Below, piece after piece: positions 1,617-17,493 of a stretch of 64,000 nt of DNA; position 1 is the first letter of the stretch, and each line of letters opens with the position of its first letter. This DNA comes from Candidatus Binatia bacterium (GTDB taxonomy: Bacteria > Desulfobacterota > Binatia > UBA9968 > JAJDTQ01): contig OX638375.1 of assembly GCA_951813575.1 (NCBI GenBank), forward strand, positions 1,625,042-1,689,041, given 5' to 3'. The notes beneath the pieces are model-generated. The model had not been told where the DNA came from, searched no databases, and saw only the letters and a program-made list of their open reading frames with translations. A program made the position numbers and the translations under genes.

Positions 1617-1641
1617 TTGACCGGGTACCACCGGTCCATCC

Positions 1642-2517
1642 TCACATGGCCCAACGAAGGTACGCCGACAGGATGTCTTCGCCCCACATCACGCAAACCC
1701 AGCCGGCCGTAGCGAGGTAGGGACCGAACGGGAACGGCTCGCTCCTTCGACGACGGCCCAGCGCGACCATGACGGCCCCTGCAACTAGCCCAATCGCCGA
1801 TGAAAACAGCAACACCAGGATCAGCACCTGCCAACCCAGCCAAGCTCCCAGCGCCGCCATGAGTTTGAAGTCACCGTAACCCATGGCCTCCTTGCCGGTG
1901 AGCAGCCGAAAGACGTGGAACACGACCCACAAGGAGAGATAACCCCCGATCGCCCCGAGCACGGCCGATGAAGGCGGAGTGAAGACCTCCCCAAGGTTGA
2001 GGGCCAGGCCCGTCCACAGGAAAGGCACCGTGATGATGTCGGGGAGTTGTTGCGTTTCCGCGTCGATGGCGGCCAGAGTGATCAGTCCCCAGGTCATCAG
2101 CAACGCGCCGAGCATGGGGGCGCCGTAGCCAAACCGCCAGGCGACCATCGCCGACAGGCCGGCGCTCAACAACTCCACCACAGGATACCGGATCGGTATG
2201 CGCCACCCGCACCAGGCGCATCGTCCGCGGAACGCCACGTAGCTCACCACCGGGATGACCTGCCAGACCGTCAACGGGTGACAGCAATGGGGGCAGTGGG
2301 ATCGTGGGACGACCAGGCCGTAAGCCTGACTTTGATCGCTCCTGTCAGCCCGGGCATCTTCGTCTACCCCCGCCAACTCCCTCGGCGTCCCGTCGTGCAG
2401 CATTCGAGGCAGCCGATGGACGACCACGTTGAGGAAGCTCCCGACCATGAGGCCGAGGCCTGCCACCGTCGTGATGAACACGGCCGGATTAGCCTCCAGG
2501 ATCAGGGGGTCGGACAT
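1642..2517 (-). CDS. pilD: Prepilin peptidase / type 4 leader peptidase (A24 family, PilD/GspO)
   Basis: These are the last 291 codons of ORF 1642..3906. The protein has the N-terminal CPHC-x-CAWC zinc motif, eight transmembrane segments and the GYGDFKLMAALGAWLGW catalytic motif. The upstream 460 codons of the ORF are read-through. Confidence 0.85.
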   Translation of the reverse strand: MSDPLILEANPAVFITTVAGLGLMVGSFLNVVVHRLPRMLHDGTPRELAGVDEDARADRSDQSQAYGLVVPRSHCPHCCHPLTVWQVIPVVSYVAFRGRCAWCGWRIPIRYPVVELLSAGLSAMVAWRFGYGAPMLGALLMTWGLITLAAIDAETQQLPDIITVPFLWTGLALNLGEVFTPPSSAVLGAIGGYLSLWVVFHVFRLLTGKEAMGYGDFKLMAALGAWLGWQVLILVLLFSSAIGLVAGAVMVALGRRRRSEPFPFGPYLATAGWVCVMWGEDILSAYLRWAM

Positions 2518-2733
2518 AACGCGGGAGTTCAGGTTACGATCTTTCGCGCCATGGAGTGCGTTCCTCCAGATTTGCCCAAGGCGACTCGTATGGAACCTCG
2601 AACCGACCGCCAAATCGAGCGGCAAAGCGGTTGACGGATAGAGGTCAACGGAAATATAGTCCGGGCTTAGGAGCCAATCAAACCCGAAGGCGCTGCTGGC
2701 GCCAACCTCCCGCCAAGGCTCCCTCAAACTAGA

Positions 2734-3177
2734 GTGCGCGCCGAAATGGTTCGATTCTACTCGATCCCCTCGGAGAAACTCACCAAAGGCTTCACGCTGC
2801 TGGAATTGCTGGCAGTGCTGGTAATCCTTGGACTGGTAGGTGCCATCGTGGCGCCGCAAGTGTTCAAGTGGCTGGACAAGGCCAACTTCGATGCGACGCG
2901 GGTGCAGATCGAAGCGCTCAGCGGCAGCATTGACCTGTACCGTCTGGAGGTAGGCTCTTACCCGCCGACCTTGGAAGCACTTGTGCGCAAACCCAGCGGA
3001 GTGGAACGGTGGAACGGGCCGTATCTCAGGAAGGCCGTGATTCCCAAGGATCCATGGAAGCGCGAGTACCGGTACCGCGTTCCAGGCGAGCATGGCCCCT
3101 ATGATCTGTACCCGCTGGGTGCGGACGGCGTCGAGGGTGGCCAGGGGAACAACGCCGACATCAAGAGTTGGGAATAG
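2734..3177 (+). CDS. gspG: Type II secretion major pseudopilin GspG; the likely true start is the Met at 2746
   Basis: It has the class III signal KGFTLLELLAVLVILGL. The C-terminal DPWKREYRYRVPGEHGPYDLYPLGADGVEGGQGNNADIKSW matches the GspG signature. Confidence 0.85.
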   Translation: MRAEMVRFYSIPSEKLTKGFTLLELLAVLVILGLVGAIVAPQVFKWLDKANFDATRVQIEALSGSIDLYRLEVGSYPPTLEALVRKPSGVERWNGPYLRKAVIPKDPWKREYRYRVPGEHGPYDLYPLGADGVEGGQGNNADIKSWE

Positions 3178-3256
3178 GCCGGCAAGGTGAGGTGGTCCTG
3201 GAAAATCGGACAGGTTGCTAAGGTGTATTCCACCGACTGAAGGAGGAGGGATACGC

Positions 3257-3538
3257 ATGAGCACACGACGAAGGTTCAGCGGAGACTTCAAGGCGAAGGT
3301 GGCGCTGGAGGCGCTGCGTGGGGACAAGACGGTCCAGGAGATCGCGGCCCGGCACAAGGTCCATCCGAACCAGGTGAGCACCTGGAAGCAGCGAGCGGTG
3401 GAGGGGATGAAGGAGTTGTTCTCCAAGGGTGCGGAGCGGGCACGTGGGGACCACGAGGGGGAGGTTCGGGACCTGCACGCGAAGATCGGGGAGTTGACGG
3501 TGGAGCGGGATTTTTTGGCCAAAGGGCTCAAGTGGTGA
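3257..3538 (+). CDS. IS3-family transposase OrfA (HTH_Tnp_1)
   Basis: ORF 3215..3538 from MSTRRRFSGDFKAKV. A leucine-zipper-like C-terminus is present. Confidence 0.85.
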   Translation: MSTRRRFSGDFKAKVALEALRGDKTVQEIAARHKVHPNQVSTWKQRAVEGMKELFSKGAERARGDHEGEVRDLHAKIGELTVERDFLAKGLKW

Positions 3539-4458
3539 GCCGGGAGAAGCGCCGGGCGATGATCGAGCCCGGCCATCCCAAGCTCAGCTTGAGCCGTCAA
3601 TGCCATCTGCTTCGAGTGAGTCGATCCTCGGTGTACCACCGGCCCAAGGGCGAGAGCGCGGAGAATTTGGCGCTGATGCGCCGGATCGACAAGCTGTTCC
3701 TGGAGTACCCCTTCTACGGCAGCCGCCAGATGGTCCGCCATCTGTGGCGGGAGCGAGTCCGAGTGGGTCGTCACCGGGTGCGGCGTCTGATGCGCCTGAT
3801 GGGGCTCCAGGCCATCTACCAGGCGCCGCGGACCACCCGACCGCACCCCGAGCAGCGGGTTTACCCCTATATGCTCAAGGGCGTCGCCATCGAACGGCCC
3901 AATCACGTGTGGACCGCAGATATAACCTACATCCCGGTCCGGAAGGGCTTCCTGTACCTGGTGGCGGTCATGGACTGGGCCACCCGCCGGGTGCTCTCCT
4001 GGCGGCTGTCGAACACCCTCGATGCCCGCTTCTGTACAGACGCCCTCTCAGAGGCTCTGGAACGCTACGGCCCTCCCGAGATCTTCAACACCGACCAGGG
4101 CAGCCAGTTCACCAGCCTGGAGTTCACCTCCGTGCTCAAGGACGCCGGCATTGCCATCTCCATGGACGGAAGGGGCCGGTGCATGGACAACATCTTCATC
4201 GAGCGCCTGTGGCGCTCGCTGAAGTACGAGGCTGTCTACCTGCACGAGCTCTCGGACGGCTTCGCGGCCCTGCGGGTCATCGCCCGGTGGGTGGCCTTCT
4301 ACAACAACCAAAGGCCTCATTCCGCCCTCGCCGGCTCCACCCCACAGGAGGCCTACGAACGAGGACTCCAGAGGCAGGCCGGACCTCACACCCCGCCCGC
4401 CCCTCTGCCAGTTCCATCCGAACACGAAGACGTGATAAACGGGACCTTGGCGGCATGA
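3532..4458 (+). CDS. IS3-family transposase OrfB (DDE integrase core). It is probably expressed as an OrfAB fusion by a programmed -1 frameshift.
   Basis: The sequence has DDE/rve motifs (HVWTADITYI, NTDQGSQFTS, MDGRGRCMDNIFIERLW). It overlaps OrfA in the -1 frame. Confidence 0.85.
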   Translation: MVSREKRRAMIEPGHPKLSLSRQCHLLRVSRSSVYHRPKGESAENLALMRRIDKLFLEYPFYGSRQMVRHLWRERVRVGRHRVRRLMRLMGLQAIYQAPRTTRPHPEQRVYPYMLKGVAIERPNHVWTADITYIPVRKGFLYLVAVMDWATRRVLSWRLSNTLDARFCTDALSEALERYGPPEIFNTDQGSQFTSLEFTSVLKDAGIAISMDGRGRCMDNIFIERLWRSLKYEAVYLHELSDGFAALRVIARWVAFYNNQRPHSALAGSTPQEAYERGLQRQAGPHTPPAPLPVPSEHEDVINGTLAA

Positions 4459-4582
4459 TCGAACGTCTGGAATACACCTTAACTCAGCCGCCCACCTGTC
4501 CTACAAACCAGGACCACCTCAGCCCGCGACACGCCCAAGCCAAGGCGAAACTGGACTTGCCCGGGATTGGTGGACAGGTTGG

Positions 4583-4885
4583 TTAAGCTGCCCGTGCCAT
4601 CCGCTCGAAGCCTGCTGGTGTCTGGTAGCCGAGGGTCGAGTGGCGACGTTGCCGATTGTAGAAGACCTCGATGAACTCGAAGATCGCGGCCCTTGCCTCG
4701 GCTGGACTCTGGTAGTCGGCGTGGTGGATGAGCTCGGTCTTCAGCGTTGCAAAGAAGCTCTCCACGACGGCGTTGTCCCAGCAGTTGGCGCGTCGGCTCA
4801 TGGAGCATTCGATGCCGTGGGCATCGAGCAGGCGCCGGTAGTCGGCCGAAGCGTATTGGGCGGTTTCAAGGGGTCGTCGCAACAC
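4583..4885 (-). pseudogene. C-terminal ~100 codons of a transposase from a different IS3-family element. An IR-like end (TTGGTGGACAGGTTGGTTAA) follows at ~4545-4580.
   Basis: The fragment reads [18 protein letters not shown]...[19 protein letters not shown]. The same fragment recurs at 15490-15693 on the plus strand. Confidence 0.75.
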
Positions 4886-5303
4886 GTCCTCGCTGGTGTA
4901 AGAGTAGCAGTTCGTTCAAGGCTTCGGATGGAGTTCTCCACCCGAGAGTCTTCCGCGGTCGGCGGTTGAGTGTGGCCGCGACAGCAGCAATGTCGTTAGC
5001 GCTGTGCCGATTGAGGTCAGTACCTTTGGGGAAGTACTGGCGCAGCAGACCATTGGTGTTCTCGTTGGTGCCGCGCTGCCACGGACTGTGGGGGTCACAG
5101 AAGAATACTTGCAACCCTGTGTCGATACCCAAACTTCCTGATGGTATCCGGTGTGAGCCAGGCGGCGGCTTCGCCTGGACTTGGTGCGATCGCAGCGTGG
5201 GCTGTCCTGCTCGATGCTCCCGGACCTCCTGGAGCCCCTTCAGAACATCCGAAGCGATATTGCGGTGAGCCATTCTTGATACCCTCCACAAGAGGCCGCT
5301 CAA
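4866..5303 (-). pseudogene. IS30-family transposase, C-terminal fragment
   Basis: The fragment reads [31 protein letters not shown]...[17 protein letters not shown]. There is no N-terminal HTH domain. Confidence 0.7.
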
Positions 5304-5310
5304 CGATGCT

Positions 5311-5770
5311 CACGTGGCACCGCCTCGCCGGACGACATGGGAGGCCTTGTGGTCTTGGGCTTCTTGGCCTTTGGCGACTCATAGAAGAGCTTCAGACTCT
5401 CCATCTTGCGCCGAAATTCCTCGGTGATCTGGCGGGCGACGGCGGGGTCCTGCAGCGCCCGCGGGGTGATCAGAATCACCAGCTCGGTACGGCGGCTGGA
5501 GTCCGCGGTGGTCTTGAACAGGTGACCGAGCAGGGGGATGTCGGAGAAACCCGGGACGCCGGACTGGGACTAGTTCTTGTTCTCCCGGATCAGGCCGCCG
5601 AGGACGATGGTCTCTCCGCTTTGGACGGCGACGCTGCTGTTGATCTTGCGCTGCTGGATCGTGGGCGTCAGGCTCCCGGCAGAACCTGGTGCCACGTCGC
5701 TTACTTCCTGCTTGATCTCCATGACCACGAGTCCGCCGGCGCTTACACGGGGCCTGACCGTGAGCAGCAC
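5311..5770 (-). pseudogene. Secretin (GspD/PilQ family) C-terminal fragment, copy 1. It is interrupted by an in-frame stop after ...GGLIRENKN.
   Basis: ORF 5570..5770 plus the continuation in the same frame (SGVPGFSDIPLLG-LFKTT...ELVILITPR). It is paralogous to 6804..7217. Confidence 0.6.
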
Positions 5771-5926
5771 GCCGGTGTCGCGGAACTCGATATTGTCGAC
5801 AGTGCTTGAGTCCCATTGCCGGCGCCAGCAGCCCTGTCACGCCGCCATTAAAGGTTGCCTAGAATGCCGTTGTCGATTAACAATGGTCCAAAGAAAGAGT
5901 ACGGGTCAGTACAAGGAGGTACCGGT

Positions 5927-6157
5927 GTGACAAACTATCGGGACCGCATCACTATCGAGCCGGGAAAGCGCGGCGGCAAGCCCTGTGTCCGCTTCATGCG
6001 GATCACGGTCTATGACGTGCTGGATTGGCTAGCCTCGGGCATGAGTGAAGCAGAGATTCTGAAGGACCACCCGGAATTGACCCAAGAGGACATCCGGGCC
6101 TGCCTGGCCTTTGCCGCCAATCGGGAACACCAATTATCTATGATCGCACCCGCTTGA
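5927..6157 (+). CDS. DUF433 domain protein (antitoxin-like partner)
   Basis: GTG start with an AAGGAGG Shine-Dalgarno sequence. The protein reads ITIEPGKRGGKPCVRFMRITVYDVLDWLASGMSEAEIL. Its stop overlaps the next gene's start. Confidence 0.75.
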   Translation: MTNYRDRITIEPGKRGGKPCVRFMRITVYDVLDWLASGMSEAEILKDHPELTQEDIRACLAFAANREHQLSMIAPA

Positions 6158-6486
6158 AGCTGCTCCTAGATCAGAACCTGTCTTTCCGGCTGCTGGAGGA
6201 GCTGGAACCCATCTATCCGGGCTCGACGCAAGTCAAGCTCATTAACCTCGATCAGACGGACGATCTTGGCGTCTGGCGCTTCGCCAGGGACAACGATTTT
6301 ACCATCGTTACCAAGGACTCGGATTTCCACGAGTTCAGCCTGGTCTATGGCAGTCCGCCGAAGGTGATCTGGCTCAAATGCGGCAACAAGCCCAGATCGT
6401 ATGTGCTGGGTCTACTGCTCGACAATCAGGATGCGGTCACGGCCTTCTTCAAGGACGACCAAAGCAGCTGCTTGGAAATCTATTAA
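6154..6486 (+). CDS. DUF5615 (PIN-like, Mut7-C-type) protein, toxin-like partner of DUF433
   Basis: The N-terminus MKLLLDQNLSFRLLEEL and the acidic residues are typical of DUF5615. It is translationally coupled to the DUF433 gene. Confidence 0.7.
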   Translation: MKLLLDQNLSFRLLEELEPIYPGSTQVKLINLDQTDDLGVWRFARDNDFTIVTKDSDFHEFSLVYGSPPKVIWLKCGNKPRSYVLGLLLDNQDAVTAFFKDDQSSCLEIY

Positions 6487-6572
6487 CGCTTACCGGTCCC
6501 TGTGCCGGATCGGGCGGCGAGGCGGCACGGGCAACTTTCTGTTGCTTGCTGAAGATTAGGTCACTTCACGTG

Positions 6573-6690
6573 GGCATAGGAAAGCTCCACTTGGTGGCGG
6601 GACCCCACGGGTACTGAGGTGGTCCCACTTTGGTGGACAGTGTGGCGGTGGCGTTAAGTAAGGGGATGTGGTCCCGGAAAATCGTGTCGT
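6573..6690 (+). other. 14-codon Rhs remnant (GIGKLHLVAGPHGY) joined at ~6615 to an IS-terminal-IR-like sequence (TGAGGTGGTCCC...GGACAG...TTAAG)
   Basis: The peptide matches the Rhs copy at 15200-15250. The first 11 nt of the adjoining sequence equal the IS3 terminal IR. Confidence 0.45.
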
Positions 6691-6803
6691 CTTAACCTTC
6701 TTTCCGTCGTACTGAGGAGAGGAAGGAGGATGTCGAGCCCGAGGCTGCAGCCCAAGGCAAGACGTCTTGAGGTGGAGGGAAAGACGATCTACGTGCCGAC
6801 CGC

Positions 6804-7217
6804 TCAACGTCCCTTAGACGGCGCAGCCTCGGAGGGCGTTTTAAAGGGTTTCGTGGCCTTGGCCTTCCCGGCCTTCGACGACCCATAGAAGGGTTTCAGA
6901 CTTCCCATCTTGCGCCGGAATTCCTCTGTGATGTGACAGGCGACGGCAGGGTCTTGTACGGCGCGGGGCGTGATCAGGACTACCAGTTCGGTACGGCGGG
7001 TGGAATCCGCGGTGGTCTTGAACAGGCGACCGAGCAGGGGGACGTCGGAAAGAGCGGACACGCCGGACTGGGACCGGTTCTTGTTCTCCCGGATCAGGCC
7101 TCCGAGAACGATGGTGTCGCCGCTCTGTGCTGCGACGCTGCGGTTGATCCTTCGCTGCTGGATGGTCGGCGTCAGGCTTCCGGCCGAGCCCGGCGCCACG
7201 TCGCTCACCTCCTGCAT
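6804..7217 (-). pseudogene. Secretin (GspD/PilQ family) C-terminal fragment, copy 2. Upstream of ~7217 the reading frame changes.
   Basis: The fragment reads LTPTIQQRRINRSVAAQSGDTIVLGGLIRENKN...SDVPLLGRLFKTT...ELVVLITPRAV. There is no N-terminal secretin domain. Confidence 0.65.
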
Positions 7218-7359
7218 GATCTCCTCTCCATGACGACGAGCCCGCCGGCGCTGACCGGGGCCTGACCGTGAGGAGCACGCCGGTGTGTGCGTGCTCGTTG
7301 AGAATTAGTCACTTCACCGAGCTCTCTGCCCTGCCTGTCCGGCGCAGCGATCCGGGAGT

Positions 7360-8875
7360 TTGGCGGTCCACTGCGTGGCAGGCTCCCACGGGTATTTGCG
7401 CATGCACGGCTACGACCACGTGGGGAGGCCAAGGAGCGAGACCGCGACCATATCCGGGGAGACCTTCCGGACAAGCCGCAGCTACGATAGCGCCGGCCGC
7501 GTGGCCACGGTGAGCTACCCCAAGAAGGGGTTTGGGGTGGGTTACGAGTATACCGCGAGCGGGTATTCGAGTAATATCTACAGTGTGGAGTCCACGGGGA
7601 CGGTGTACTGGACGGCGGAGGAGGTGAACGCCGAGGGGCAGATCACCGAGGCGATGCTGGGGAACGGGGTGAGCACCACCCGGAGCTGCGACCCGGAGAC
7701 CGGACTGGTGGAGAGCATCCAATCAGGGAAGGACGGCAACACGGAGGTACAGGACCTGGGGTATGTGTTCGACAGTCTGGGGAACCTGAGCACCCGGGAG
7801 GATTCCATCCAGGGGGTGTACGAGAGTTTTGACTATGACCTCTTGAACCGTCTTACGGGCGGCGCGGTGTACGATGCACTGGACGACACCGAGCGGGAGG
7901 CCAAGACCTACAGTTACGACGCCGTCGGCAACATCGTGAACAAGTCGGACGTGGGGGCTGAGGACTACGAGTACGAGTCCGGGAACGAGGCGGGGTCGGG
8001 GGATGCGGGTCCTCATGCGGTGGTGAGTGCCGGGGGAAACACCTACGAGTACGACGACAACGGGAACATGACCTCCGGGGCGGGGAAGGCCATGACCTGG
8101 ACGAGCTTCAACAAACCCCAGGTCATAAGCGACTCCACTACCACCAGCGCATTCATCCACGGTCCCGAAAGAGCCCGGATACAGCAGACCCGGGTGCAGG
8201 GGGCGGCCACCACCACCATCAAGTACGTGGGCACGATGTTCGAGCAGGTGGAGAAGACGGGTGCGGCCACCCAGTACGTGCACTACGTGTTTGCGGGGGA
8301 GAGGCGGGTGGCGGTGTACACCACCGACGATGGAGCCACGCCCACGGAGACGACGCGGTACCTGCACCAGGACCACCTGGGGTCGGTGGACACCATCACG
8401 GACGAGACCGGGGCGGTGGTGGAGCGGCTGTCGTACGATGCGTGGGGCAAGCGGAGGACGGCCACGGGGGACGATGCCTGGACCGACTCGCTCATAGCCA
8501 TCACCCCGGGGAACACCCCCAGAGGGTTTACCGGCCACGAGCACCTGGACGACTTCGAGCTGGTGCACATGAACGGGAGGGTGTACGACCCGGTGCTGGG
8601 GAGGTTTATGAGTCCGGATCCATTCGTGCAGTACCCGGAGAGTACTCAGGGGTTTAACCGGTATACCTATACCTCCAACAACCCCCTGTCCTTTACCGAT
8701 CCCAGCGGGTACTTCCTTTCAGAGCCGGATTGGGACGCAGACTACGAAATCGACGACGACGAGGAGAACGGGGGGCCTACGGCTGCGACGGCTGCGGCTA
8801 TACTGGCAACGATGAGGATGAACTGTACGGTGACGATCCGTGGGACGACACGCCGGTACGGCCCGGGGACACTAG
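7360..8875 (+). pseudogene. Rhs/YD-repeat protein, C-terminal core fragment (copy 1). It is 5'-truncated and carries a 1-nt deletion near 8776. Its toxin domain is replaced from ~8876.
   Basis: It has YD repeats (YEYTASGY, SYDAVGNIVN, TYEYDDNGNM) and the core-end motif RVYDPVLGRFMSPDPF...NRYTYTSNNPLSFTDPSGY. ORF 8730..8939 continues the copy-2 toxin N-terminus in a shifted frame. Confidence 0.8.
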
Positions 8876-9031
8876 AGCCTTGGCCAGATCGCGTTCCGCG
8901 ACCAGGCCCAGCGAGATCAGGAACGGACCCAGCCGTTGACCGCTTTCAGCTTGAAGCCGCAGTGCACGGTCCAGCTCCGACCGTTCCAGGCAGCGCTTCT
9001 CAACCAGCAATTCGCCGACGGCGTCGCTCAT
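8873..9031 (-). pseudogene. First 53 codons of a type II secretion / type IV pilus ATPase (GspE/PilB N-terminal domain). It is truncated at its junction with the Rhs fragment.
   Basis: The fragment MSDAVGELLVEKRCLERSELDRALRLQAESGQRLGPFLISLGLVAERDLAKAL matches the T2SSE_N domain. The remainder of ORF 8798..9031 is antisense Rhs sequence. Confidence 0.6.
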
Positions 9032-9242
9032 GGTTCGAGAGTTCCCGTGACGACGAGATTATCACGTTACCCTACGGGTCAACAGCGGTTACGACCAACT
9101 CCGAATCCACCTGCCATCGCGATCGTTCCTAGTGCCGAGCCTCAACGGCCGATCACGGCCGCTGCCTAGGCAATCCGCACCGGCATTCCGTTTCCCGATA
9201 CCGGCGCGCTGCTCACCGTCAGTTCCGGCAGTTCGTTCCCTT

Positions 9243-9965
9243 TCAGTCTTCGATCCTCCAGCCTCCAATTAGCCGATCCTGTTGCGTCTTGATCTTCACA
9301 AAATTATCCGGACGACAAACTACACCTACTACCGTCGTCTCCACCAAAATTCCGTCATAAACGCTACGAATGTTACACAACGCTTTCCGATTTAGAGTGA
9401 CAGGCCCACTCTTCACCAGTCCGCCTTCTTCCATCTCCACATAGAAGTCTGCGTTAGAAATGCCCAACACAGTGGCTCGTCTCGGATCGAAACTAAAGTA
9501 GTAATGTCGCTTCTCACCAATGAATGACTCTTCATAGCGATAAAATCCCGTTTGTTTCCCAATTCTTACCGACCTATCTAAAATGTGTTCTGATGCCCCC
9601 ACAATTGTTCGTCGATCGTACAATTTATCATAAAACAACATCAATAGAACCGACACGCCGCCGTCAACCCCGAAATCGGCACCAGGTATCGACAAGAACG
9701 TTGAAGGGGCATCATCGAAACCTTTCAGGTCTTTAAACAAATAATGAAAAATGGAGCGTGTGTTTTTTGTATATTCGTGCGGTATAGAGTACGCATGCCG
9801 GTGTCCTTTGATAGTAAGTGCCGACGCCCGGCTCGGCAACGCGACTACACATAAACACATTATGATCGTGAACAGGAACACGATGATCGTCGATTGCGAT
9901 GAAGTATATTGTGTCATAATGCAACCGTTAGTTGGACACCGGGTCACACTGCGAACAGACCACAA
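9243..9965 (-). CDS. Hypothetical protein encoded on a low-GC island. A hydrophobic N-terminal segment suggests it is exported.
   Basis: It is a 240-codon ORF whose local GC content is clearly below its surroundings. No family was recognised. It abuts the IS copy B end. Confidence 0.5.
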   Translation of the reverse strand: MWSVRSVTRCPTNGCIMTQYTSSQSTIIVFLFTIIMCLCVVALPSRASALTIKGHRHAYSIPHEYTKNTRSIFHYLFKDLKGFDDAPSTFLSIPGADFGVDGGVSVLLMLFYDKLYDRRTIVGASEHILDRSVRIGKQTGFYRYEESFIGEKRHYYFSFDPRRATVLGISNADFYVEMEEGGLVKSGPVTLNRKALCNIRSVYDGILVETTVVGVVCRPDNFVKIKTQQDRLIGGWRIED

Positions 9966-10076
9966 AAGCCGGCAGATACTGACCTAAGTAAGCACTTGTC
10001 GGCAAACTCAGAGTGAGGTGGTCCTGGTTTGTAGGACAGGGAGGCGGCTGAGTTAAGGTGTATTCCAGACGTTCGA

Positions 10077-11003
10077 TCATGCCGCCAAGGTCCCGTTTAT
10101 CACGTCTTCGTGTTCCGATGGAACTGGCAGAGGGGCGGGCGGGGTGTGAGGTCCGGCCTGCCTCTGGAGTCCTCGTTCGTAGGCCTCCTGTGGGGTGGAG
10201 CCGGCGAGGGCGGAATGAGGCCTTTGGGTGTTGTAGAAGGCCACCCACCGGGCGATGACCCGCAGGGCCGCGAAGCCTTCCGAGAGCTCGTGCAGGTAGA
10301 CAGCCTCGTACTTCATCGAGCGCCACAGGCGCTCGATGAAGATGTTGTCCATGCACCGGCCCCTTCCGTCCATGGAGATGGCAATGCCGGCGTCCTTGAG
10401 CACGGAGGTGAACTCCAGGCTGGTGAACTGGCTGCCCTGGTCGGTGTTGAAGATCTCGGGAGGGCCGTAGCGTTCCAGAGCCTCTGAGAGGGCCTCTGTA
10501 CAGAAGCGGGCATCGAGGGTGTTCGACAGCCGCCAGGAGAGCACCCGGCGGGTGGCCCAGTCCATGACCGCCACCAGGTACAGGAAGCCCTTCCGGACCG
10601 GGATGTAGGTTATATCTGCGGTCCACACGTGATTGGGCCGTTCGATGGCGACGCCCTTGAGCATATAGGGGTAAACCCGCTGCTCGGGGTGCGGTCGGGT
10701 GGTCCGCGGCGCCTGGTAGATGGCCTGGAGCCCCATCAGGCGCATCAGACGCCGCACCCGGTGACGACCCACTCGGACTCGCTCCCGCCACAGATGGCGG
10801 ACCATCTGGCGGCTGCCGTAGAAGGGGTACTCCAGGAACAGCTTGTCGATCCGGCGCATCAACGCCAGATTCTCCGCGCTCTCGCCCTTGGGCCGGTGGT
10901 ACACAGAGGATCGACTCACTCGAAGCAGATGGCATTGACGGCTCAAGCTGAGCTTGGGATGGCCGGGCTCGATCATCGCCCGGCGCTTCTCCCGGCTCAC
11001 CAC
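10077..11003 (-). CDS. IS3-family transposase OrfB, copy B
   Basis: It is 308 aa and differs from the copy A OrfB by a few substitutions. Confidence 0.85.
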   Translation of the reverse strand: MVSREKRRAMIEPGHPKLSLSRQCHLLRVSRSSVYHRPKGESAENLALMRRIDKLFLEYPFYGSRQMVRHLWRERVRVGRHRVRRLMRLMGLQAIYQAPRTTRPHPEQRVYPYMLKGVAIERPNHVWTADITYIPVRKGFLYLVAVMDWATRRVLSWRLSNTLDARFCTEALSEALERYGPPEIFNTDQGSQFTSLEFTSVLKDAGIAISMDGRGRCMDNIFIERLWRSMKYEAVYLHELSEGFAALRVIARWVAFYNTQRPHSALAGSTPQEAYERGLQRQAGPHTPPAPLPVPSEHEDVINGTLAA

Positions 11004-11278
11004 TTGAGCCCTTTGGCCAAAAAATCCCGCTCCACCGTCAACTCCCCGATCTTCGCGTGCAGGTCCCGAACCTCCCCCTCGTGGTCCCCACGTGCCCGCT
11101 CCGCACCCTTGGAGAACAACTCCTTCATCCCCTCCACCGCTCGCTGCTTCCAGGTGCTCACCTGGTTCGGATGGACCTTGTGCCGGGCCGCGATCTCCTG
11201 GACCGTCTTGTCCCCACGCAGCGCCTCCAGCGCCACCTTCGCCTTGAAGTCTCCGCTGAACCTTCGTCGTGTGCTCAT
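10997..11278 (-). CDS. IS3-family transposase OrfA, copy B
   Basis: Identical in sequence to the copy A OrfA. Confidence 0.85.
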   Translation of the reverse strand: MSTRRRFSGDFKAKVALEALRGDKTVQEIAARHKVHPNQVSTWKQRAVEGMKELFSKGAERARGDHEGEVRDLHAKIGELTVERDFLAKGLKW

Positions 11279-11313
11279 GCGTATCCCTCCTCCTTCAGTC
11301 GGTGGAATACACC

Positions 11314-12270
11314 TTAGCAACCTGTCCGTTTTTCCGGGACCACCTCAAGGGTCCTGTTTAACACGTCCTGCTGTTCCGGTTGAGCCGGCAGAGAGGCAGG
11401 TGAGCTGCAGCGCTGTGCCGGCCTCTGCGTCAGCATTCCCTTTTCGTAGACCTCGGCCGGGGTGGAGCCCCCCAAGGCGGAGTGGGGGCGCGCCCGGTCA
11501 TAGAAGGCGAACCACCGAGAGATCAGCCGCTGGGCCTGGAAGCCGTCAGAGATCTCGTGCAGGTAGACGGCCTCATACTTGAGGGAGCGCCACAGGCGCT
11601 CGATGAAGATGTTGTCCATGCAGCGGCCCCTGCCGTCCATGGAGATGGCGACGCCGGCGTCGTTGAGCACGGAGGTGAACTCCAGGCTGGTGAACTGGCT
11701 GCCCTGGTCTGAGTTGAAGATGTCGGGAGGGCCGTAGCGTTCCAGAGCCTCGGTGAGGGCCTCGACACAGAAGCGGGCATCGAGGGTGTTCGACAGTCTC
11801 CAGGAGAGCACCCGGCGGGTGGCCCAGTCCATGACCGCCACCAGGTACAGAAAGCCCTTCTGAACGGGGATGTACGTCAGGTCCGCGCACCACACGTGAT
11901 TGGGCCTCTCGATGGCCAATCCCTTGAGCAGACAGGGGTAAACCCGGTGCTGGGGATGCCGTGTGGTGGTCCGCGGCGCCTGGTAGATGGCCTGTAGCCC
12001 CATCAAGCGCATCAGACGCCGCACCCGGTGACGCCCCACAAAGACGCCTTCCCGCCACAGATGGCGGGCCATCTGGCGGCTGCCGTAGAAGGGGTACTCC
12101 AGGAACAGCTTGTCGATCCGGCGCATCAACGCCAGATTCTCCGCGCTCTCGCCCTTGGGCCTGTGGTACACAGAGGATCGGCTCACTCGAAGCAGATGGC
12201 ATTGACGGCTCAAGCTGAGCTTGGGATGGCCGGGCTGGGTCATCGCCCGGCGCTTGTCCCGGCTTACCAC
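11314..12270 (-). CDS. IS3-family transposase OrfB of copy C. Its C-terminus is altered by the junction with copy B.
   Basis: This is the lower part of ORF 11314..12585, which has DDE motifs. The upstream extension of that ORF is -1-frame read-through of OrfA. Confidence 0.7.
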   Translation of the reverse strand: MVSRDKRRAMTQPGHPKLSLSRQCHLLRVSRSSVYHRPKGESAENLALMRRIDKLFLEYPFYGSRQMARHLWREGVFVGRHRVRRLMRLMGLQAIYQAPRTTTRHPQHRVYPCLLKGLAIERPNHVWCADLTYIPVQKGFLYLVAVMDWATRRVLSWRLSNTLDARFCVEALTEALERYGPPDIFNSDQGSQFTSLEFTSVLNDAGVAISMDGRGRCMDNIFIERLWRSLKYEAVYLHEISDGFQAQRLISRWFAFYDRARPHSALGGSTPAEVYEKGMLTQRPAQRCSSPASLPAQPEQQDVLNRTLEVVPEKRTGC

Positions 12271-12612
12271 TTGAGCCCTTTGGCCAAAAAATCCCGCTCC
12301 ACCGTCAGCTCCCCGATCTTCGCGTGCAGGTCCCGAATCTCCCCCTCGTGGTCCCCTCGTGCCCGCTCCACCCCCTTGGAGAACACCTCCTTCATCCCCT
12401 CCACCGCCCGCTGCTTCCACGTGCTCACCTGGTTCGGGTGGATCTTGTGCCGCGTGGCGATCTCCTGGATCGTCTTGTCCCCTCGCAGTGCCTCCAGCGC
12501 CACCTTCGCCTTGAAGTCTCCGCTGAACCGTCGTCGTGTGCTCATTGCGTATCCCTCCTCCAGTCGGTGGAATACACCTTAGCAACCTGTCCGATTTTCC
12601 AGGACCACCTCA
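11348..12612 (-). mobile_element. IS3-family insertion sequence, copy C. It is a diverged relative (~85-90% protein identity). Its 3' terminal ~70 bp and that IR are missing because it abuts copy B directly.
   Basis: OrfA is at 12264..12545. The OrfB reading frame runs through into the copy B terminal IR (ending ...LEVVPEKRTGC). The 5'-end terminal IR is at ~12612. Confidence 0.8.
12264..12545 (-). CDS. IS3-family transposase OrfA of copy C
   Basis: The 93-aa product reads MSTRRRFSGDFKAKVALEALRGDKTIQEIATRHKIHPNQ... Confidence 0.8.
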   Translation of the reverse strand: MSTRRRFSGDFKAKVALEALRGDKTIQEIATRHKIHPNQVSTWKQRAVEGMKEVFSKGVERARGDHEGEIRDLHAKIGELTVERDFLAKGLKW

Positions 12613-12650
12613 GCTGTAGGCACACCACACATCCCATGGACCACAAAAAT

Positions 12651-13061
12651 TCAAAATAGTCTAAAAAGACTAAAACGGATTTCTTGATTCTTTATCTCAG
12701 ACTGATAAAACCATATGTATCCCGCTAATATGTTTAGCAGACAAAAAGTTACGAGTCCTTTGATAGCCTCTCCTCGATAACCTAACTTCCATAAGTAACA
12801 CACATAACCAATTGCATAAGACGTCATAGATATAACACAGATAAAGATAAGGCCAACACAAATATGAGAGACGGCCATAAGAATTGGATAGTCTTGCTCT
12901 GACCAATCTTGCTCTAACCAGTCTTGGTCTAACCAACCTTGTATCATGGAAAAGACGATGGCTAAGAAAAACACGGCATAAAACGCAATCAAAAAAAATG
13001 TCGAGTGATAGCAGACTCTAATCAACCTCTTGAAAACCGGTGGCAAAATATACTTTGTCAT
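12651..13061 (-). CDS. Small low-GC membrane protein immediately downstream of the Rhs toxin domain; putative cognate immunity protein
   Basis: It has four predicted transmembrane helices and an internal DW-rich tandem repeat (GWLDQDWLEQDWSEQDY). GC content is well below the genome's. The position matches Rhs toxin-immunity gene order. Confidence 0.5.
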   Translation of the reverse strand: MTKYILPPVFKRLIRVCYHSTFFLIAFYAVFFLAIVFSMIQGWLDQDWLEQDWSEQDYPILMAVSHICVGLIFICVISMTSYAIGYVCYLWKLGYRGEAIKGLVTFCLLNILAGYIWFYQSEIKNQEIRFSLFRLF

Positions 13062-13157
13062 GTGTCACCTTCACTTCTCCGGTACTATTCTACGCACATA
13101 TGAGATGGTTCTGCTTTCTTGGACACGCGAGCGGCAGACTTCACCTTTCATCGGAAA

Positions 13158-15488
13158 CTACTTGCCAGTAAAGTAGTCCCTAATTGGTTTAAGATCATAC
13201 TCGATTCCAAATGAATAGGGTGCTATAGTCCCGCTAATGCCGATGGACAAGTCCCAACTGGGGGCCTCCCAACCAAAAATGTTCATGTTCTTAACTCCGT
13301 CCCTGTGGTTGAAATCAGCATCCCACCCATAAAGACGGCCACCGAAGTTATAGTAGCTAAACTGGAGATCAGCAGTCGATTTACCCCAAATAGCTGTTCC
13401 TCTGTAATCGCGGTTAAGCCCACCAGAAGCGACTACGAACCCGCCACCAATTTTGAAAGGGCCAAATTTAAGTTCTTTGATGTGATACCCCCAACCAGCG
13501 CCTATTTCGACACTGTGCCCCTTTTTGACAGCATCCCATAAACCCTTAACTTGCTCCCATGCCCCTCCCTCGATACCAAGTATCTCGGCATAATCCTGAA
13601 CCCTCCTCATGTCTCCCGCTAGTAGAAGGTCGTTCATTTCGGCTCTGATAGTCTCCGTGGTGGGGAGCCTATGCTCTTTCTCCCAACTGTCGTAGTCTGG
13701 CACTATGGTCACTCCCCCGCCCGAACCGGAGGCGCTTGATACTTTTTGTCCCGTGCCGGTGTTAGTGATCCTAGTGTCCCCGGGCCGTACCGGCGTGTCG
13801 TCCCACGGATCGTAGCCGTACAGTTCATCCTCATCGTTGCCAGTATAGCCGCAGCCGTCGCAGCCGTAGGACCCCCCGTTCTCCTCGTCGTCGTCGACTT
13901 CGTAGTCTGCGTCCCAATCCGGCTCTGAAAGGAAGTACCCGCTGGGATCGGTAAAGGACAGGGGGTTGTTGGAGGTATAGGTATACCGGTTAAACCCCTG
14001 AGTACTCTCCGGATACTGCACGAATGGATCCGGACTCAGGAACCTCCCCAGCACCGGGTCGTACACCCTCCCGTTCATGTGCACCAGCTCGAAGTCGTCC
14101 AGATGCTCGTGGTCGGTAAACCCTCTGGGGGTGTTCCCCGGGGTGATGGCTATGACCGAGTCGGTCCAGGCATCGGTCCCCGTGGCCGTCCTCCGCTTGC
14201 CGAAGGCATCGTACGACAGCCGCTCCACCACCGCCCCGGTCTCGTCCGTGATCGTGTCCACCGACCCCAGGTGGTCCTGGTGCAGGTACCGCGTCGTCTC
14301 CGCGGGCGCGGCGGCATCGTCGGTGGTGTACACCGCTATTCGCCTCTCCCCCGCAAACACGTAGTGCACGTACTCGGTGGCCACACCCGTCTTCTCCACC
14401 TGCTCGAACGCCAACCCCACGTACTTGATGGTGGTGGTGGCCGCCCCCTGCACCCGGGTCTGCTATATCCGGGCTCTTTCGGGACCGTGGATGAATGCGC
14501 TGGTGGTAGCGGAGTCGCTTATGACCTGGGGCTTGTTGAAACTCGTCCAGGTCATGGTCCGTCCCGCCCCGGAGGTCATGTTCCCGTTGTCGTCGTACTC
14601 GTACGTGTTCCCACCCGCGCTCACCACCGCATGAGGACCTGCATCCCCTGACCCCGCTTCGTTCCCGGTCCCGTACTCGTAGTCGTCATCCCCCACGTCC
14701 GACTTGTTCACGATGTTGCCCACGGCGTCGTAGCTGTAGGTCTTCTCCTCCCGCTCGGTGTCGTCCAGTGCATCGTACACCGCGCCGCCCGTAAGACGGT
14801 TCAAGAGGTCATAGTCAAAACTCTCGTACACCCCCTGGATGGAATCCTCCCGGGTGTTCAGGTTCCCCAGACTGTCGAACACATACCCCAGGTCCTGTAC
14901 CTCGGTGTTGCCGTCCTTGCCTGACTGTATGCTCTCCACCAGTCCGGTCTCCGGGTCGTAGCTCCGGGTGGTGCCCACTCCGTTCCCCAGCATCGCCTGG
15001 GTGATCTGTCCCTCGGCGTTCACCTCCTCCGCCGTCCAGTACACCGTCCCCGGGGACTCCACACTGTAGATATTACTCGAATACCCGCTCGCGGTATACT
15101 CGTAACCCACCCCAAACCCCTTCTTGGGGTAGCTCACCGTGGCCACGCGGCCGGCGCGGTCAAAACTCCGGCTGGTCCGGAAGGTCTCGCCCTTGATGGT
15201 CTCGGTCTCGCTCTTGGGCCTCCCTACGTGGTCGTAGCCATGCATGCGCAGGTACCCGTGGGGTCCCGCCACCCAGTGGAGTTTTCCTATGCCCGTGACC
15301 GCCGTGTCATAGCTCCAGGTGGTGGTCCCTTCCCCCTCGGTCCGGCTTACCATCCGACCCAGCACATCGTACTCCATGGTCGCCGTCTGACCCTTGGCGT
15401 CGGTCTGGGAGGTGATCTCTCCCAGGGAGTTGTACGCGTAGCTCCATTCTCCCATGTCGGGGTCGCTCATCCCTACCTTGCGGCCCAG
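13158..15488 (-). pseudogene. Rhs/YD-repeat protein (copy 2). Its core C-terminal region and a complete C-terminal toxin domain of unrecognised family are present. It is 5'-truncated at ~15488 by an IS fragment and has an in-frame stop at 14463..14465.
   Basis: ORFs 13158..14453 and 14463..15548 are contiguous in one frame (RARI*QTRVQ, where copy 1 has Q). The core ends at PLSFTDPSGY. A ~230-aa Gly/Trp-rich tail follows. Confidence 0.8.
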
Positions 15489-15489
15489 G

Positions 15490-15693
15490 ACGTCCTGGGA
15501 CAACGCCGTCGTGGAGAGCTTCTTTGCTACGCTGAAGACCGAGCTCATCCACCACGCCGACTACCCTAGTCCAGCCGAGGCAAGGGCCGCGATTTTCGAG
15601 TTCATCGAGGTGTTCTACAATCGGCAACGTCGCCACTCGACCCTCTGCTACCAGACACCAGCAGGCTTTGAGCGGATGGCACGGGCAGCTTAA
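15490..15693 (+). pseudogene. Second copy of the IS3-type transposase C-terminal fragment (the same one as 4583..4885), followed by the same IR-like end
   Basis: The fragment reads [24 protein letters not shown]...[45 protein letters not shown] follows the stop. Confidence 0.7.
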
Positions 15694-15742
15694 CCAACCT
15701 GTCCACCAACCCCGGGTAAGGCCAGCCGCAGGAAATCGCAGT

Positions 15743-16542
15743 CTGAGCACACTGCGAAACCACATCGTGCATCTCACCCAGCGGTTTGGGCTCGACCGCG
15801 CCGTGGACATAACACCGGAACGCGTGAGCCAGTATCAGGTGTCCAGACTTGAGGAAGGGGCGGCCCGCGCGACCGTGAACCGCGAAGTCGCAACCCTCAA
15901 CCGCATGATGTCGCTGGCCGTGAACAGGAAGGTGCTTCTCCGTAAGTCGCACTTCGGACTGCTGGATGGGGAGCGGACGCGGGAAGGCTTTCTCTATCCT
16001 GCGGACTTCGCGGCCGTTCTTGGCCATCTGCCCTTGGCTTCAGAGGCCAGTGGAGTTCCTTTACCTGAGCGGGTGGCGTGTCGGCGAGATGCGCTCCCTG
16101 CGTTGGGCCGACGTCAACATGGACGAGCGGGTCGCCGTCCTGAAGATCGAAAACTCGAAGACGAAGCGCTCACGTCCGCTGACCCTCGAGGGTCGCCTCT
16201 GGGACATCGTCCGGGAGGCTCACGGGGCACGAAGACTCGATTGCCCGTTCGTCTTCCATTGGAACGGCCAGCCTATCGGTAACTTCCGCAAAAGGTGGAA
16301 CAGCGCCTGCCGGGCCGCGGGCATTGAGGGGGTGGTCGTTCACGATCTGTGCCGGAGCGCTACCCGTAATCTGCGGGAGGCGGGTGTTCAGGGTCGCGAT
16401 GGACTTCACCGGACATGTCACCAGGGCGATGTTCGACCGGTACAACATCACGGACGCAGAACAGATGAGGCAGGCCCAGATCCAGTTAGACGAGTATCTG
16501 AGGCAACAGATCGGCGAGCGGAAGGTCAGAGCCATCCGGTAG
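15743..16542 (+). pseudogene. Tyrosine recombinase (phage-type integrase). It is broken by two frameshifts (~16030 and ~16390) and is N-terminally truncated.
   Basis: The catalytic-domain motifs are spread over three frames, in ORFs 15668.., 15966.. and 16324..: LSGWRVGEMRSLRWADV, then HDLCRSATRNLREAGV, then RAMFDRYNI. Confidence 0.8.
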
Positions 16543-16622
16543 GCGACGCGGACAAAAGGCGGACAAAATATGGCCATTTCGGAGCAGAGAGAGACCTACG
16601 CGTTCGTAAGTTGTTGAAATTA

Positions 16623-16699
16623 TGGTGGTCGCAGCAGGACTCGAACCTGCGGCCTCTTGCATGTGAGGCAAGCGCTCTAGCCGACTGAGCTATGCGACC
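16623..16699 (-). tRNA. tRNA-Val (anticodon CAC), 77 nt including the encoded CCA
   Basis: It folds as a cloverleaf by hand: a GGUCGCA/UGCGACC acceptor stem, a GCUC/GAGC D stem, a CUUGC/GCAAG anticodon stem with the loop CUCACAU, and a GCAGG/CCUGC T stem with UUCGAGU. The position was anchored through ORF 16526..16750. Confidence 0.85.
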
Positions 16700-16771
16700 A
16701 CGCCAGGATAGACCTTGACGTTTACCACCTGGACGGGCGGGTTTCAACAACGCCGCGGCAAGCGGAACGGG

Positions 16772-17038
16772 TCACTCCCGTTCCTTCTGCCGCTGCTTGA
16801 TGCGCTGGTTGAGGGACTGCAGGATGCCGGCGTCGACGGCGGCGATGACGTCCACCGCGGCATCGAGGTGTTCCTCGGGAATGTCTGCTTTCCTTGCGTC
16901 CGCAAGGCGGCGGTCCACTCAGGGATCGCAGTTCCGGGTCATGGCCACGGCGAGGCCGAGAAAGATCTTCTCCCGTTCGCTGAGGCACTCGACCGCGTGG
17001 GCGTCCCGATAGAACTGACGGAAGTCTGCCTTGTTCAT
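16772..17038 (-). CDS. Carboxymuconolactone decarboxylase / AhpD-like family protein with an in-frame TGA at 16919..16921 in the C-x-x-C position; a candidate selenoprotein
   Basis: The translation is MNKADFRQFYRDAHAVECLSEREKIFLGLAVAMTRNCDP-U-VDRRLADARKADIPEEHLDAAVDVIAAVDAGILQSLNQRIKQRQKERE. Family-like sequence continues on both sides of the TGA. A hairpin (CCUUGC-GGAC-GCAAGG) starts 11 nt after the UGA. Confidence 0.55.
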
Positions 17039-17085
17039 GGACTCTCTCCTGTTGGCGCCCGGCGTTCCAGGCGGCATGCGGCACT

Positions 17086-17493
17086 TCAGCCCTTGGCCAT
17101 CTCCATGATGACGTCGTAGTGGGCGTCGCTCACCGGAACGAAGGAAAGCCGGCCCAGCCGGAACAGGTCGAAGCCTTCCAGCTTTGGGTTGAGCTTCATC
17201 TCGGCCAGCGACACCTCACGCTTCAGCGCCTTGCCGACCTTGATGTCGAACACCAGGAGCCTGGGATCGTCCTTCTCGGGATCGGCATAGGCGCCGGTGG
17301 TGGCGGTGCCGAGGCCGACGCAGATCCGCTCGCCGCCGGTGTGATAGATGATGCACCGGTCGCCCTTCTTCACGGTCTTGAGGTGCTTGAGAGCGAGATT
17401 GTTCTTGATACCGTCCCAGATCGTGCTCTTGTCCCGTTGCAGGTCCGCAAAGGAATAAACGCTGGGTTCGGTCTTGAGCAGCCAGTTCGCCAT
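17086..17493 (-). CDS. EVE (PUA-like) domain protein
   Basis: The N-terminus MANWLLKTEPSVYSFADL and C-terminus GRLSFVPVSDAHYDVI are typical of EVE proteins. Confidence 0.8.
   Translation of the reverse strand: MANWLLKTEPSVYSFADLQRDKSTIWDGIKNNLALKHLKTVKKGDRCIIYHTGGERICVGLGTATTGAYADPEKDDPRLLVFDIKVGKALKREVSLAEMKLNPKLEGFDLFRLGRLSFVPVSDAHYDVIMEMAKG

Follow-up and report, generated by a model that had tools for sequence, protein, structure and literature searches.

A Probably Decayed and Immobilised Accessory Tract beside tRNA-Val in a Sponge-Associated Candidatus Binatia Bacterium

Introduction

How does a tRNA gene come to be bordered by 13 kb of broken genes? The question is raised by a stretch of 64,000 nucleotides of Candidatus Binatia bacterium (assembly GCA_951813575.1, contig OX638375.1, positions 1,625,042 to 1,689,041), hereafter called the window, in which a region of 13.4 kb lies between the pseudopilin gene gspG and a tRNA-Val(CAC) gene and contains insertion sequences (IS), Rhs gene bodies, pieces of secretion genes and the remains of a tyrosine integrase. 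A first-pass annotation of the window had suggested for this region an integrated island reshaped by repeated IS-mediated inversion and deletion, a pattern that would also match IS expansion in a host-restricted lineage, and had offered a mosaic metagenomic assembly as the alternative. By comparison of the window with itself, with protein and RNA families and with contigs of other metagenome assemblies (designated by L and a number), we came to read the region as the inner portion, now decayed and immobile, of an accessory tract that is larger still and lies at a tRNA-Val integration hot spot in a sponge-associated host; the probability that we assign to this reading is about 0.8. The locus is a decayed tRNA-associated island, which is a known kind of element; it is well supported here, and its extent is corrected and its outer boundary unusual.

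Integration at the tRNA-Val Gene

ARAGORN and Rfam agreed with the first-pass annotation in the call of tRNA-Val(CAC) at the right edge of the region, and this tRNA was the sole match of the Rfam scan. The ancestral order of the locus is PSII_BNR, tRNA-Val, EVE, nfo and a periplasmic binding protein. Here, foreign DNA separates PSII_BNR from the 3′ end of the tRNA. An empty site was found in L021, a conspecific contig which is 99.9% identical in the tRNA-EVE block, and in three related lineages (L031, L032, and L036) recovered by a metagenome scan with the EVE protein beside the tRNA. These three contigs, of which L032 comes from an Aplysina aerophoba metagenome, were collinear with the window from 16.6 to 28 kb at 82-88% identity, and in them tRNA-Val runs straight to a PSII_BNR-like gene. 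The gene order of the native right flank of the window (16700-19047) matched that of the four empty loci, and its GC content at third codon positions (GC3) was core-like.

Between tRNA-Val and PSII_BNR, L032 has a spacer of 0.2 kb, while that of L031 and L036 reaches 1.5 kb. The longer spacer (L036:3415-4905 and L031:8507-9997) contains a HicB-like open reading frame (ORF), another ORF of 236 aa and a homologue of the window's DUF433 gene, at 74% identity. Small defence-type or toxin-antitoxin genes therefore land at this site recurrently.

The composition of the region, for which a comparison with the flanks had been proposed, deviated strongly in GC, tetranucleotides and GC3. The 13.4 kb have 59.9% GC and a tetranucleotide correlation to the rest that falls to 0.63, while the background has 66.6% GC and a correlation of 0.959 ± 0.013. 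The GC3 of GH3, MR_MLE, pilD, and gspG, to the left of the region, and of FA_hydroxylase, just outside the window, was 0.74-0.80, versus 0.884 ± 0.031 in 24 core genes. Taken together, the deviant composition and the empty sites in one conspecific contig and three related lineages bear out the proposal of an integrated accessory region at tRNA-Val.

The integrase that would have brought it is still recognisable, with its end at 16542 and the 3′ end of the tRNA at 16623, so that a tyrosine recombinase stands directly beside the 3′ end of a tRNA. The two frameshifts that had been reported in it were recovered by three-frame reading and by contig comparison: one is a 2-bp deletion at 16032/16033, and the other, near 16385, throws the segment of the catalytic Tyr out of frame. 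In addition, the gene has lost its 5′ end to an IS3-type fragment. With the integrase dead by both causes, the tract can no longer excise by its own recombinase.

Regarding the host, contigs 99.7-99.9% identical to the window were found in JGI 3300002734 / GenBank LXNJ and in several ENA sets. LXNJ is a metagenome of the sponge Petrosia ficiformis (Horn et al.), and the host-associated setting postulated from the IS content is supported by this origin. The relatives of the flanking genes were labelled as metagenome-assembled genomes (MAGs) of Deltaproteobacteria or Ca. Binatia.

Outer Boundary of the Tract

The left border of the island had been placed at gspG, which proved to be wrong, since gspG, pilD, MR_MLE, and GH3 have a foreign GC3 and all of them lie between two copies of tRNA-Val. 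The second copy was located on contig L006, which overlaps positions 1-3286 of the window at 99.85% identity, extends 6.2 kb further left and carries, from its left end, PSII_BNR, tRNA-Val(1), EVE(1), nfo(1), FA_hydroxylase, and GH3. This tRNA-Val(1) (CAC) is complete, is encoded on the same strand as copy 2, shares with it 75 of 77 bases and is situated about 4.1 kb to the left of window base 1. It had been proposed to look, also beyond the window start, for a partial direct repeat of the tRNA 3′ end as the opposite att site. A repeat does exist there, but it is not a partial one: when a 25-mer, with 3 mismatches or fewer allowed, and blastn-short were applied to the window and to L006, only the two full tRNAs were found. 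The tract spans about 20.8 kb between them.

The left tRNA/EVE/nfo block was 84-87% identical to the native block on the right, and in distance trees it branched like a separate species of the clade and not like a recent duplicate; the GC3 of EVE(1) and nfo(1) was core-like. The divergent sequence does not end at the tRNA, as it runs on past tRNA(1) into PSII_BNR. When L021 was aligned with L006, identity stayed at ~60-87% across the spacer and for ~190 bp into PSII_BNR, and from there it rose abruptly to 99-100%; within the gene itself the jump is from about 85% to 100%. This switch is a homologous-recombination breakpoint and not an att junction.

From these observations the following history may be proposed. 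An integrase-borne island would have entered at tRNA-Val, and later a segment of a related species, reaching from the 5′ end of PSII_BNR through tRNA-Val, EVE, nfo, FA_hydroxylase, GH3, MR_MLE, and pilD to gspG, would have replaced the left end of the island by homologous recombination. The left crossover would lie in PSII_BNR and the right one in a shared repeat, most simply IS copy A, next to gspG, where no target duplication is seen. Further rearrangement could later have been permitted by the IS and Rhs repeats in inverted orientation. A more ambitious version, which is tentative and which we regard as somewhat doubtful, would have the tract of ~21 kb arrive whole, or no less than the left 7 kb of it, in a single import from a different species of the same sponge-symbiont clade, by homologous recombination anchored in the flanking core genes and with duplication of an entire tRNA-Val/EVE/nfo locus. 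If it were true, sponge symbionts of different species would be exchanging large pieces of chromosome at this hot spot.

A single-step integration of the Campbell type could explain many of the same observations, and we judge it unlikely. In this case an aberrantly excised island, carrying the tRNA-Val/EVE/nfo flank of its former host as a specialised transducing phage would, recombines site-specifically, through its own tRNA-Val, with the resident tRNA-Val. Two full tRNA-Val genes in direct repeat then arise in one event, and the order predicted is the observed one (PSII_BNR, tRNA(1), EVE(1), nfo(1), cargo, integrase, tRNA(2), EVE(2), nfo(2)). It is also consistent with the distance of 80 bp between the integrase and the 3′ end of tRNA(2), with the homology of the blocks, whose start in the right-hand copy lies no more than about 10 bp from the 3′ end of the tRNA, and with the composition of EVE(1) and nfo(1), which is like that of a close relative while that of the cargo is not. 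Nevertheless, sequence of donor type continues for ~270 bp beyond tRNA(1), through the spacer and ~190 bp into PSII_BNR; a crossover in the tRNA cannot yield this, and an extra conversion event would be needed.

Strain Differences and Assembly Support

The reading of an island that entered at tRNA-Val and then eroded in place can be followed in the strains that share the locus. The 2-bp deletion of the integrase is present in the window and in L020, an Illumina contig of P. ficiformis, and absent from L022, while the second frameshift is common to the three. As the first is variable and the second is shared, both frameshifts are real and the decay was stepwise. Two contigs (L058 and L059) follow positions 4703-7463 at 99.9% identity without 7083-7304, a deletion of 222 bp at the secretin fragment S2, with TT microhomology at the join; this deletion strain is from P. 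ficiformis as well. Another two (L001 and L003) have a B-like IS end inserted at 13604, within the toxin domain of the Rhs body R1.

The largest difference was seen in L060, in which window position 2669, just before gspG, is joined to 13772 by a 1.09-kb element of the IS630 family (L060:6102-7190). This contig is devoid of 11.1 kb (2670-13771), and with them of gspG, all three IS3 copies, the secretin pieces, the Rhs body R2, and the toxin of R1 with its downstream ORF; its Rhs gene has Gln where R1 of the window has a stop at 14463. The element has a helix-turn-helix (HTH) and DDE_3 transposase, inverted ends of ~28 bp and TA on both sides, one of them inside CTAG. As described for IS630, the target is CTAG and TA is duplicated (PMC2577343, Table 1). 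Given that the TA flanks correspond to window sites 11.1 kb apart, the element marks a deletion and not a simple insertion. Its site is the same CTAG at which the homology between R1 and R2 stops and R2 joins the MshEN stub in the window, and taking into account the target of IS630, an element of this type may also have made the junction of R2 with the stub. We considered whether the Rhs gene of L060 could prove an inversion between R1 and R2, and this was rejected: no more than two informative sites, next to each other, give it an R2-type 3′ end, and assembly could have produced the mosaic. As the events differ among co-existing strains, erosion is ongoing.

At the testable junctions, the mosaic assembly that had been raised as an alternative is unlikely, because four blocks were reproduced by independent short-read assemblies of sponge metagenomes (P. 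ficiformis and others), from different samples and pipelines, at 99.2-99.9% identity (Table 1). More broadly, metagenome assembly could have fused or collapsed co-occurring strains or species into one chimeric locus, at its IS, Rhs or tRNA repeats. The two haplotypes of the tRNA-EVE-nfo block, 84-87% alike, do occur together in the same sponge samples, strains within the same host differ at the locus, repeats of 1.3-1.5 kb at 94-99% identity are at hand, and several stretches have no independent coverage. Against such an artefact, besides the four junction blocks, stand the 2-bp integrase deletion, which appears in an Illumina assembly too, and nfo(1), which is found together with the window genes on one 4.21-Mb contig (4,210,610 bp). 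Moreover, next to the tRNA both L006 and L021 carry sequence of their own, and a simple chimera of the others is therefore excluded for either contig. We consider the artefact very improbable.

Insertion Sequences and Repeat Layout

An island fixed at tRNA-Val and then eroded is also the frame in which we describe its IS elements. The three IS3-family copies that had been listed were recovered by self-comparison and NCBIfam; two are complete (A and B, with 99.1% identity across 1334 bp) and one is cut (C). In A and B, orfA (HTH) and orfB (DDE/rve) are in overlapping frames between terminal inverted repeats that end in TG..CA, and orfB is an IS3-family transposase by NF033516 (275.7 bits; cut-off 160). 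In these two copies a T-run, ATTTTTTG, sits ahead of the orfA/orfB overlap. The further IS remnants that had been noted also stood, and correspond to a second IS3-type element, here ISx, present as two fragments of 96% identity, to the C-terminal piece of an IS30 transposase and to relics resembling inverted repeats at ~6615-6700. Outside the tract, the same IS family as A, B, and C was found in sponge-associated MAGs labelled Ca. Binatia, Deltaproteobacteria, and Syntrophobacterales at 86-95% identity, with six loci in one Ca. Binatia chromosome. Within the window, self-comparison gave zero copies of these elements in the other 47 kb, and the ORFs tested at 18-57.5 kb were ordinary metabolic genes, with no transposase or integrase among them.

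At the junction with gspG, two contigs from other samples (L008:2311-3257 and L009:999-1945, compared with window 3188-4127) were ~100% identical to the window up to gspG, and the IS that follows was only 82-92% identical to copy A. Either another IS variant occupies the same site or a short-read assembler stepped into another copy.

Every repeat given by the first-pass annotation between gspG and tRNA-Val was reproduced by self-comparison, and with lengths of 0.2-1.5 kb and identities of 88-99% they are far above chance. The inverted pairs of its near-mirror layout are real, but they are interleaved and not strictly nested: the interval between A and B overlaps the interval of the ISx pair, and neither is inside the other. 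No target duplication of 3-4 bp was found around A or B, as the flanks are AGG and GCC for A and CCT and CTC, in its own orientation, for B. The lack of duplications fits later recombination and not fresh insertion, and their loss indicates that recombination has involved both copies. An inversion between A and B predicts a swap of flanks, and this swap restores no duplication of 3-4 bp either. We also tried a composite insertion into C bounded by left inverted repeats (IRL-IRL), which had in its favour the AGG match outside the left ends of A and B and the cut end of C, continuing in 6 of 7 positions within 10 bp past the gspG stop; the candidate was discarded as unproven when the match turned out weaker against a C-like full-length IS (L011). 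Consequently, of the repeated IS-mediated inversion and deletion that had been suggested, deletion is documented as strain polymorphism and inversion was not demonstrated. Inversion by IS is plausible from the arrangement, which offers as substrate inverted repeats of 1.3 kb (IS) and 1.5 kb (Rhs).

Rhs Genes and Other Cargo

By its recognisable parts, the cargo of the eroded island appears to consist of an Rhs polymorphic toxin with an immunity gene, secretion genes of the type II secretion system (T2SS) or type IV pilus (T4P) type, and a small toxin-antitoxin pair. No fewer than four IS families (two of IS3 type, IS30 and, in the case of a sister strain, IS630) have broken it into pieces, together with small deletions. 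The two Rhs bodies that had been annotated were confirmed by Pfam and NCBIfam matches and by self-comparison, and a third relic of 43 nt was added. The cores, 7367-8875(+) and 13771-15280(−), share 94% identity over 1.5 kb; they contain YD/RHS repeats (PF05593), R1 matches TIGR03696, and the Rhs-associated core ends in PxxxxDPxG, here NPLSFTDPSGY. Neither copy is a full-length Rhs with an N-terminal delivery region, since both are 5′-truncated, R1 has a stop and R2 a frameshift. The R1 gene is dead in this genome.

The C-terminal toxin domain of R1 (13158-13770) has 49.9% GC and gave no match in Pfam, NCBIfam, PADLOC or PDB sequences. Among 1.84 billion representatives, no more than about 10 remote relatives came to light, all of them C-termini of other Rhs-type fragments. 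Downstream of it lies an ORF of 136 aa with several membrane passes, and the exact protein, with the same neighbours including the toxin, was found in five other metagenome contigs. By its position, this ORF would be the immunity gene of the R1 toxin, and one may reasonably guess, but no more than guess, that the toxin acts on membranes and its immunity protein sits in them. It may even be, and this we propose as a tentative idea that could well be wrong, that the domain represents an undescribed rare toxin family of long beta-hairpins, paired with a multi-pass membrane immunity protein and possibly inserting into membranes.

That the locus might instead be a functional toxin-switching system, in which inverted Rhs and IS copies serve as invertible cassettes feeding C-terminal toxin/immunity modules into an expressed rhs gene in the manner of the orphan Rhs modules of enterobacteria, is hardly credible: the cores are inverted, their 94% homology over 1.5 kb stops exactly at the start of the variable toxin, the toxin domain and the small downstream membrane ORF are kept and conserved in five other contigs, and orphan Rhs modules are described as recombining with a full-length gene in Salmonella (PMC7043789), but both cores are devoid of the N-terminal half and so of delivery domain and start, R1 has its nonsense codon and R2 its frameshift and no toxin, no VgrG, PAAR or type VI secretion system (T6SS) gene was present among the window ORFs tested, and other strains have an IS inside the toxin or the toxin deleted.

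The secretion set is incomplete: gspG and pilD are intact, while the secretin is reduced to two C-terminal fragments and the ATPase to a stub of 52 aa. The two secretin pieces had been recognised before and were verified with PF00263, TIGR02517 and frame translations; S1 and S2 are 84% identical. The N-terminal stub exists, too, but its MshEN domain, which binds cyclic di-GMP, fits GspE, MshE or PilB, and the name gspE given to it was too specific. The DUF433/DUF5615 pair is probably a toxin-antitoxin module. Exact-protein searches gave no match for the 240-aa ORF or for the MshEN stub, and PADLOC returned nothing for the Rhs pieces, the 136-aa immunity ORF, the DUF433/DUF5615 pair or the 240-aa ORF. 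The statement that almost nothing in the region is intact goes too far, as IS copies A and B, the DUF433/DUF5615 pair, the 136-aa ORF and the 240-aa ORF are open. No gene of this graveyard need function; the exceptions, if any, would be the toxin-antitoxin pair and the orphaned immunity gene.

Table 1: Features of the tract and its flanks, in window coordinates, and blocks reproduced by other assemblies.
Feature	Position	Strand	Remarks
Foreign but intact left part of tract	1-3187		4 genes; Pfam and GC3
GH3 C-terminus	10-477	+	Pfam
Enolase-superfamily MR_MLE gene	483-1616	+	Pfam
Prepilin peptidase PilD/GspO	1642-2520	-	Pfam; intact
Pseudopilin GspG (T2SSG domain)	2746-3177	+	Pfam; intact
IS3-family copy A	3188-4521	+	Complete; orfA 3257-3538, orfB 3532-4458; TG..CA ends; NF033516
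ISx left copy, 3′ fragment of second IS3-type element	4551-~4890	-	rve_3/transpos_IS3 C-terminus
IS30-family transposase C-terminal fragment	~4866-5123	-	NF033563, profile positions 210-267 of 267, E=5.8e-26
Secretin C-terminal fragment S1	5349-5840	-	5′-truncated; one in-frame stop
DUF433 + DUF5615 gene pair	5855-6157, 6154-6486	+	Intact; 54.7% GC; Pfam
43-nt Rhs relic, then IS3-like inverted-repeat relics	6572-6614, ~6615-6700	+	Rhs relic 95% match to 15252-15294
Secretin C-terminal fragment S2	6804-7295	-	5′ part frameshifted; PF00263, TIGR02517 profile positions 503-600 of 600
Rhs body R2	7360-8875	+	5′-truncated; 1-nt deletion near 3′ end; toxin domain lost; ends at CTAG; RHS_repeat/RHS
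MshEN N-terminal-domain stub (5′ end of gene)	8876-9031	-	52 aa; NF053729, E=9e-14
240-aa ORF	9243-9965	-	Open; N-terminal hydrophobic segment; 45.8% GC; no family match
IS3-family copy B	10014-11347	-	Complete; TG..CA inverted ends; open orfA/orfB
IS3-family copy C	11350-12615	-	88% identical to A; right end (last ~75 bp) missing; left end of B abuts the cut
136-aa multi-pass membrane ORF	12651-13061	-	Open; 36.7% GC
Rhs body R1	13158-15494	-	5′-truncated; nonsense codon 14463-14465; C-terminal toxin domain 13158-13770; RHS_repeat, TIGR03696
ISx right copy, 3′ fragment of second IS3-type element	15495-15725	+	Cuts integrase 5′ end
Tyrosine integrase pseudogene	15726-16542	+	PF00589/PF24624; 5′ end removed by IS3-type fragment
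tRNA-Val(CAC), copy 2	16623-16699	-	ARAGORN and Rfam; 3′ end faces integrase
Native right flank	16700-19047		Small ORF, EVE (17086-17490, -), HTH ORF (17634-17909, -), nfo/AP_endonuc_2 (18056-19003, +)
Reproduced block gspG/IS			Contigs L006, L008-L010; L008/L009 depart inside IS
Reproduced block	4703-7463		Contigs L058, L059
Reproduced block	12281-13659		Contigs L001-L005
Reproduced block	15609-20699		Contigs L020, L022, L024-L026

Neighbouring Genes

In the left part of the tract, the genes FA_hydroxylase, GH3, and MR_MLE (L006:4053-7852 with window 1-1616; also L056:7430-11134) recur together in many MAGs and metagenome contigs at 61-75% amino acid identity. Named carriers are few and come from several phyla, the neighbours vary and the GC3 is foreign here; the three genes look like a horizontally shared cassette. 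In its nearest relative, with 75% amino acid identity, the three genes were present with no pilD, gspG or nfo alongside. In one sample (L057:2210-3819) GH3 is seemingly disrupted; an ORF was called there on the opposite strand and ~160 bp do not align with L006.

On the right side of the window two further features deserve mention. A second gene of PSII_BNR/Sortilin type (36771-37910, plus strand) lies 20 kb to the right; with ~44% over 88 aa, it is distantly paralogous to the PSII_BNR gene that flanks the hot spot. An open frame of 994 aa (24119-27103, minus strand), with a lowish GC3 (0.74) and no Pfam match, overlaps several plus-strand ORFs and is probably a spurious high-GC frame.

Discussion

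The empty sites, the composition, the adjacent integrase and the strain polymorphisms agree with a tract that was inserted at tRNA-Val, lost its means of excision and was then degraded. Several observations weigh against this reading or against the history proposed for it. The breakpoint in PSII_BNR is unlike a simple integrase insertion, so that at least two events have to be assumed. Of the crossovers, the right one in copy A is purely inferred, and the 3-bp AGG match outside the left ends of A and B fits chance. No donor lineage of the divergent block was found, the nearest nfo relatives being 85-86% identical. tRNA-Val(1) and the rest of the leftmost 4 kb of the tract lie outside the window and are known only from other assemblies (L006, which equals L033 for the tRNA). 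With no target duplications left around the IS, single inversions and deletions in the window cannot be reconstructed. As for the assemblies, 4521-4703, 7463-10014, the B/C junction, and 13659-15609 are stretches where independent support is lacking, and the short-read contigs themselves are possibly chimeric at repeats, considering that L008 and L009 enter a different IS variant and that the Rhs gene of L060 is a mosaic of R1 and R2.

Even so, the locus offers a well-documented snapshot of the immobilisation of an island and its subsequent erosion in an uncultured sponge symbiont, with intermediate states in co-existing strains. The clean inter-species recombination breakpoint beside a tRNA hot spot is useful for the study of symbiont genome dynamics and for MAG annotation. 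The locus reveals no new mechanism and opens no new question; toxin hunters may find a minor lead in the small Rhs toxin domain, for which no family has been described.

Comparison with Known Systems

By comparison with IS630/Tc1-mariner elements (PMC2577343), the element of L060 is alike in its DDE_3 domain, inverted ends, TA flanks and CTAG; it differs in that the two TA come from distant sites of the window, where the element is absent. An abundance of transposases and defence genes is reported for sponge microbiomes (PMC5099237, citing Fan et al. 2012). With the IS-rich degraded regions of host-associated bacteria the locus shares nested and truncated IS of several families, the absence of target duplications, the indels between strains and the sponge habitat, while here the IS load is confined to the island within the 64 kb examined.

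The Rhs elements with orphan C-terminal toxin/immunity modules of Salmonella, E. coli, and Serratia (PMC7043789, PMC10539506, and PMC4436062) have the same YD/RHS repeats, DPxG core, variable C-terminus of low GC, small immunity-type gene and truncated copies that share the core. In contrast, there is here no full-length rhs or T6SS among the tested ORFs of the window, both copies are pseudogenes and the toxin domain belongs to no described family.

The closest counterpart is found in the fixed pathogenicity and fitness islands of enterobacteria, which are associated with tRNA genes and have decayed integrases. The tract resembles them in its position at the 3′ end of a tRNA, in the adjacent tyrosine integrase whose inactivation fixed the island, in the deviant composition, in the existence of empty sites and in the debris of mobile elements. 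It differs at the far boundary, which is made by a complete second tRNA-Val and two housekeeping-type genes of another species and not by a short partial repeat; the outer junction is a homologous-recombination breakpoint in the neighbouring gene and not an att site.

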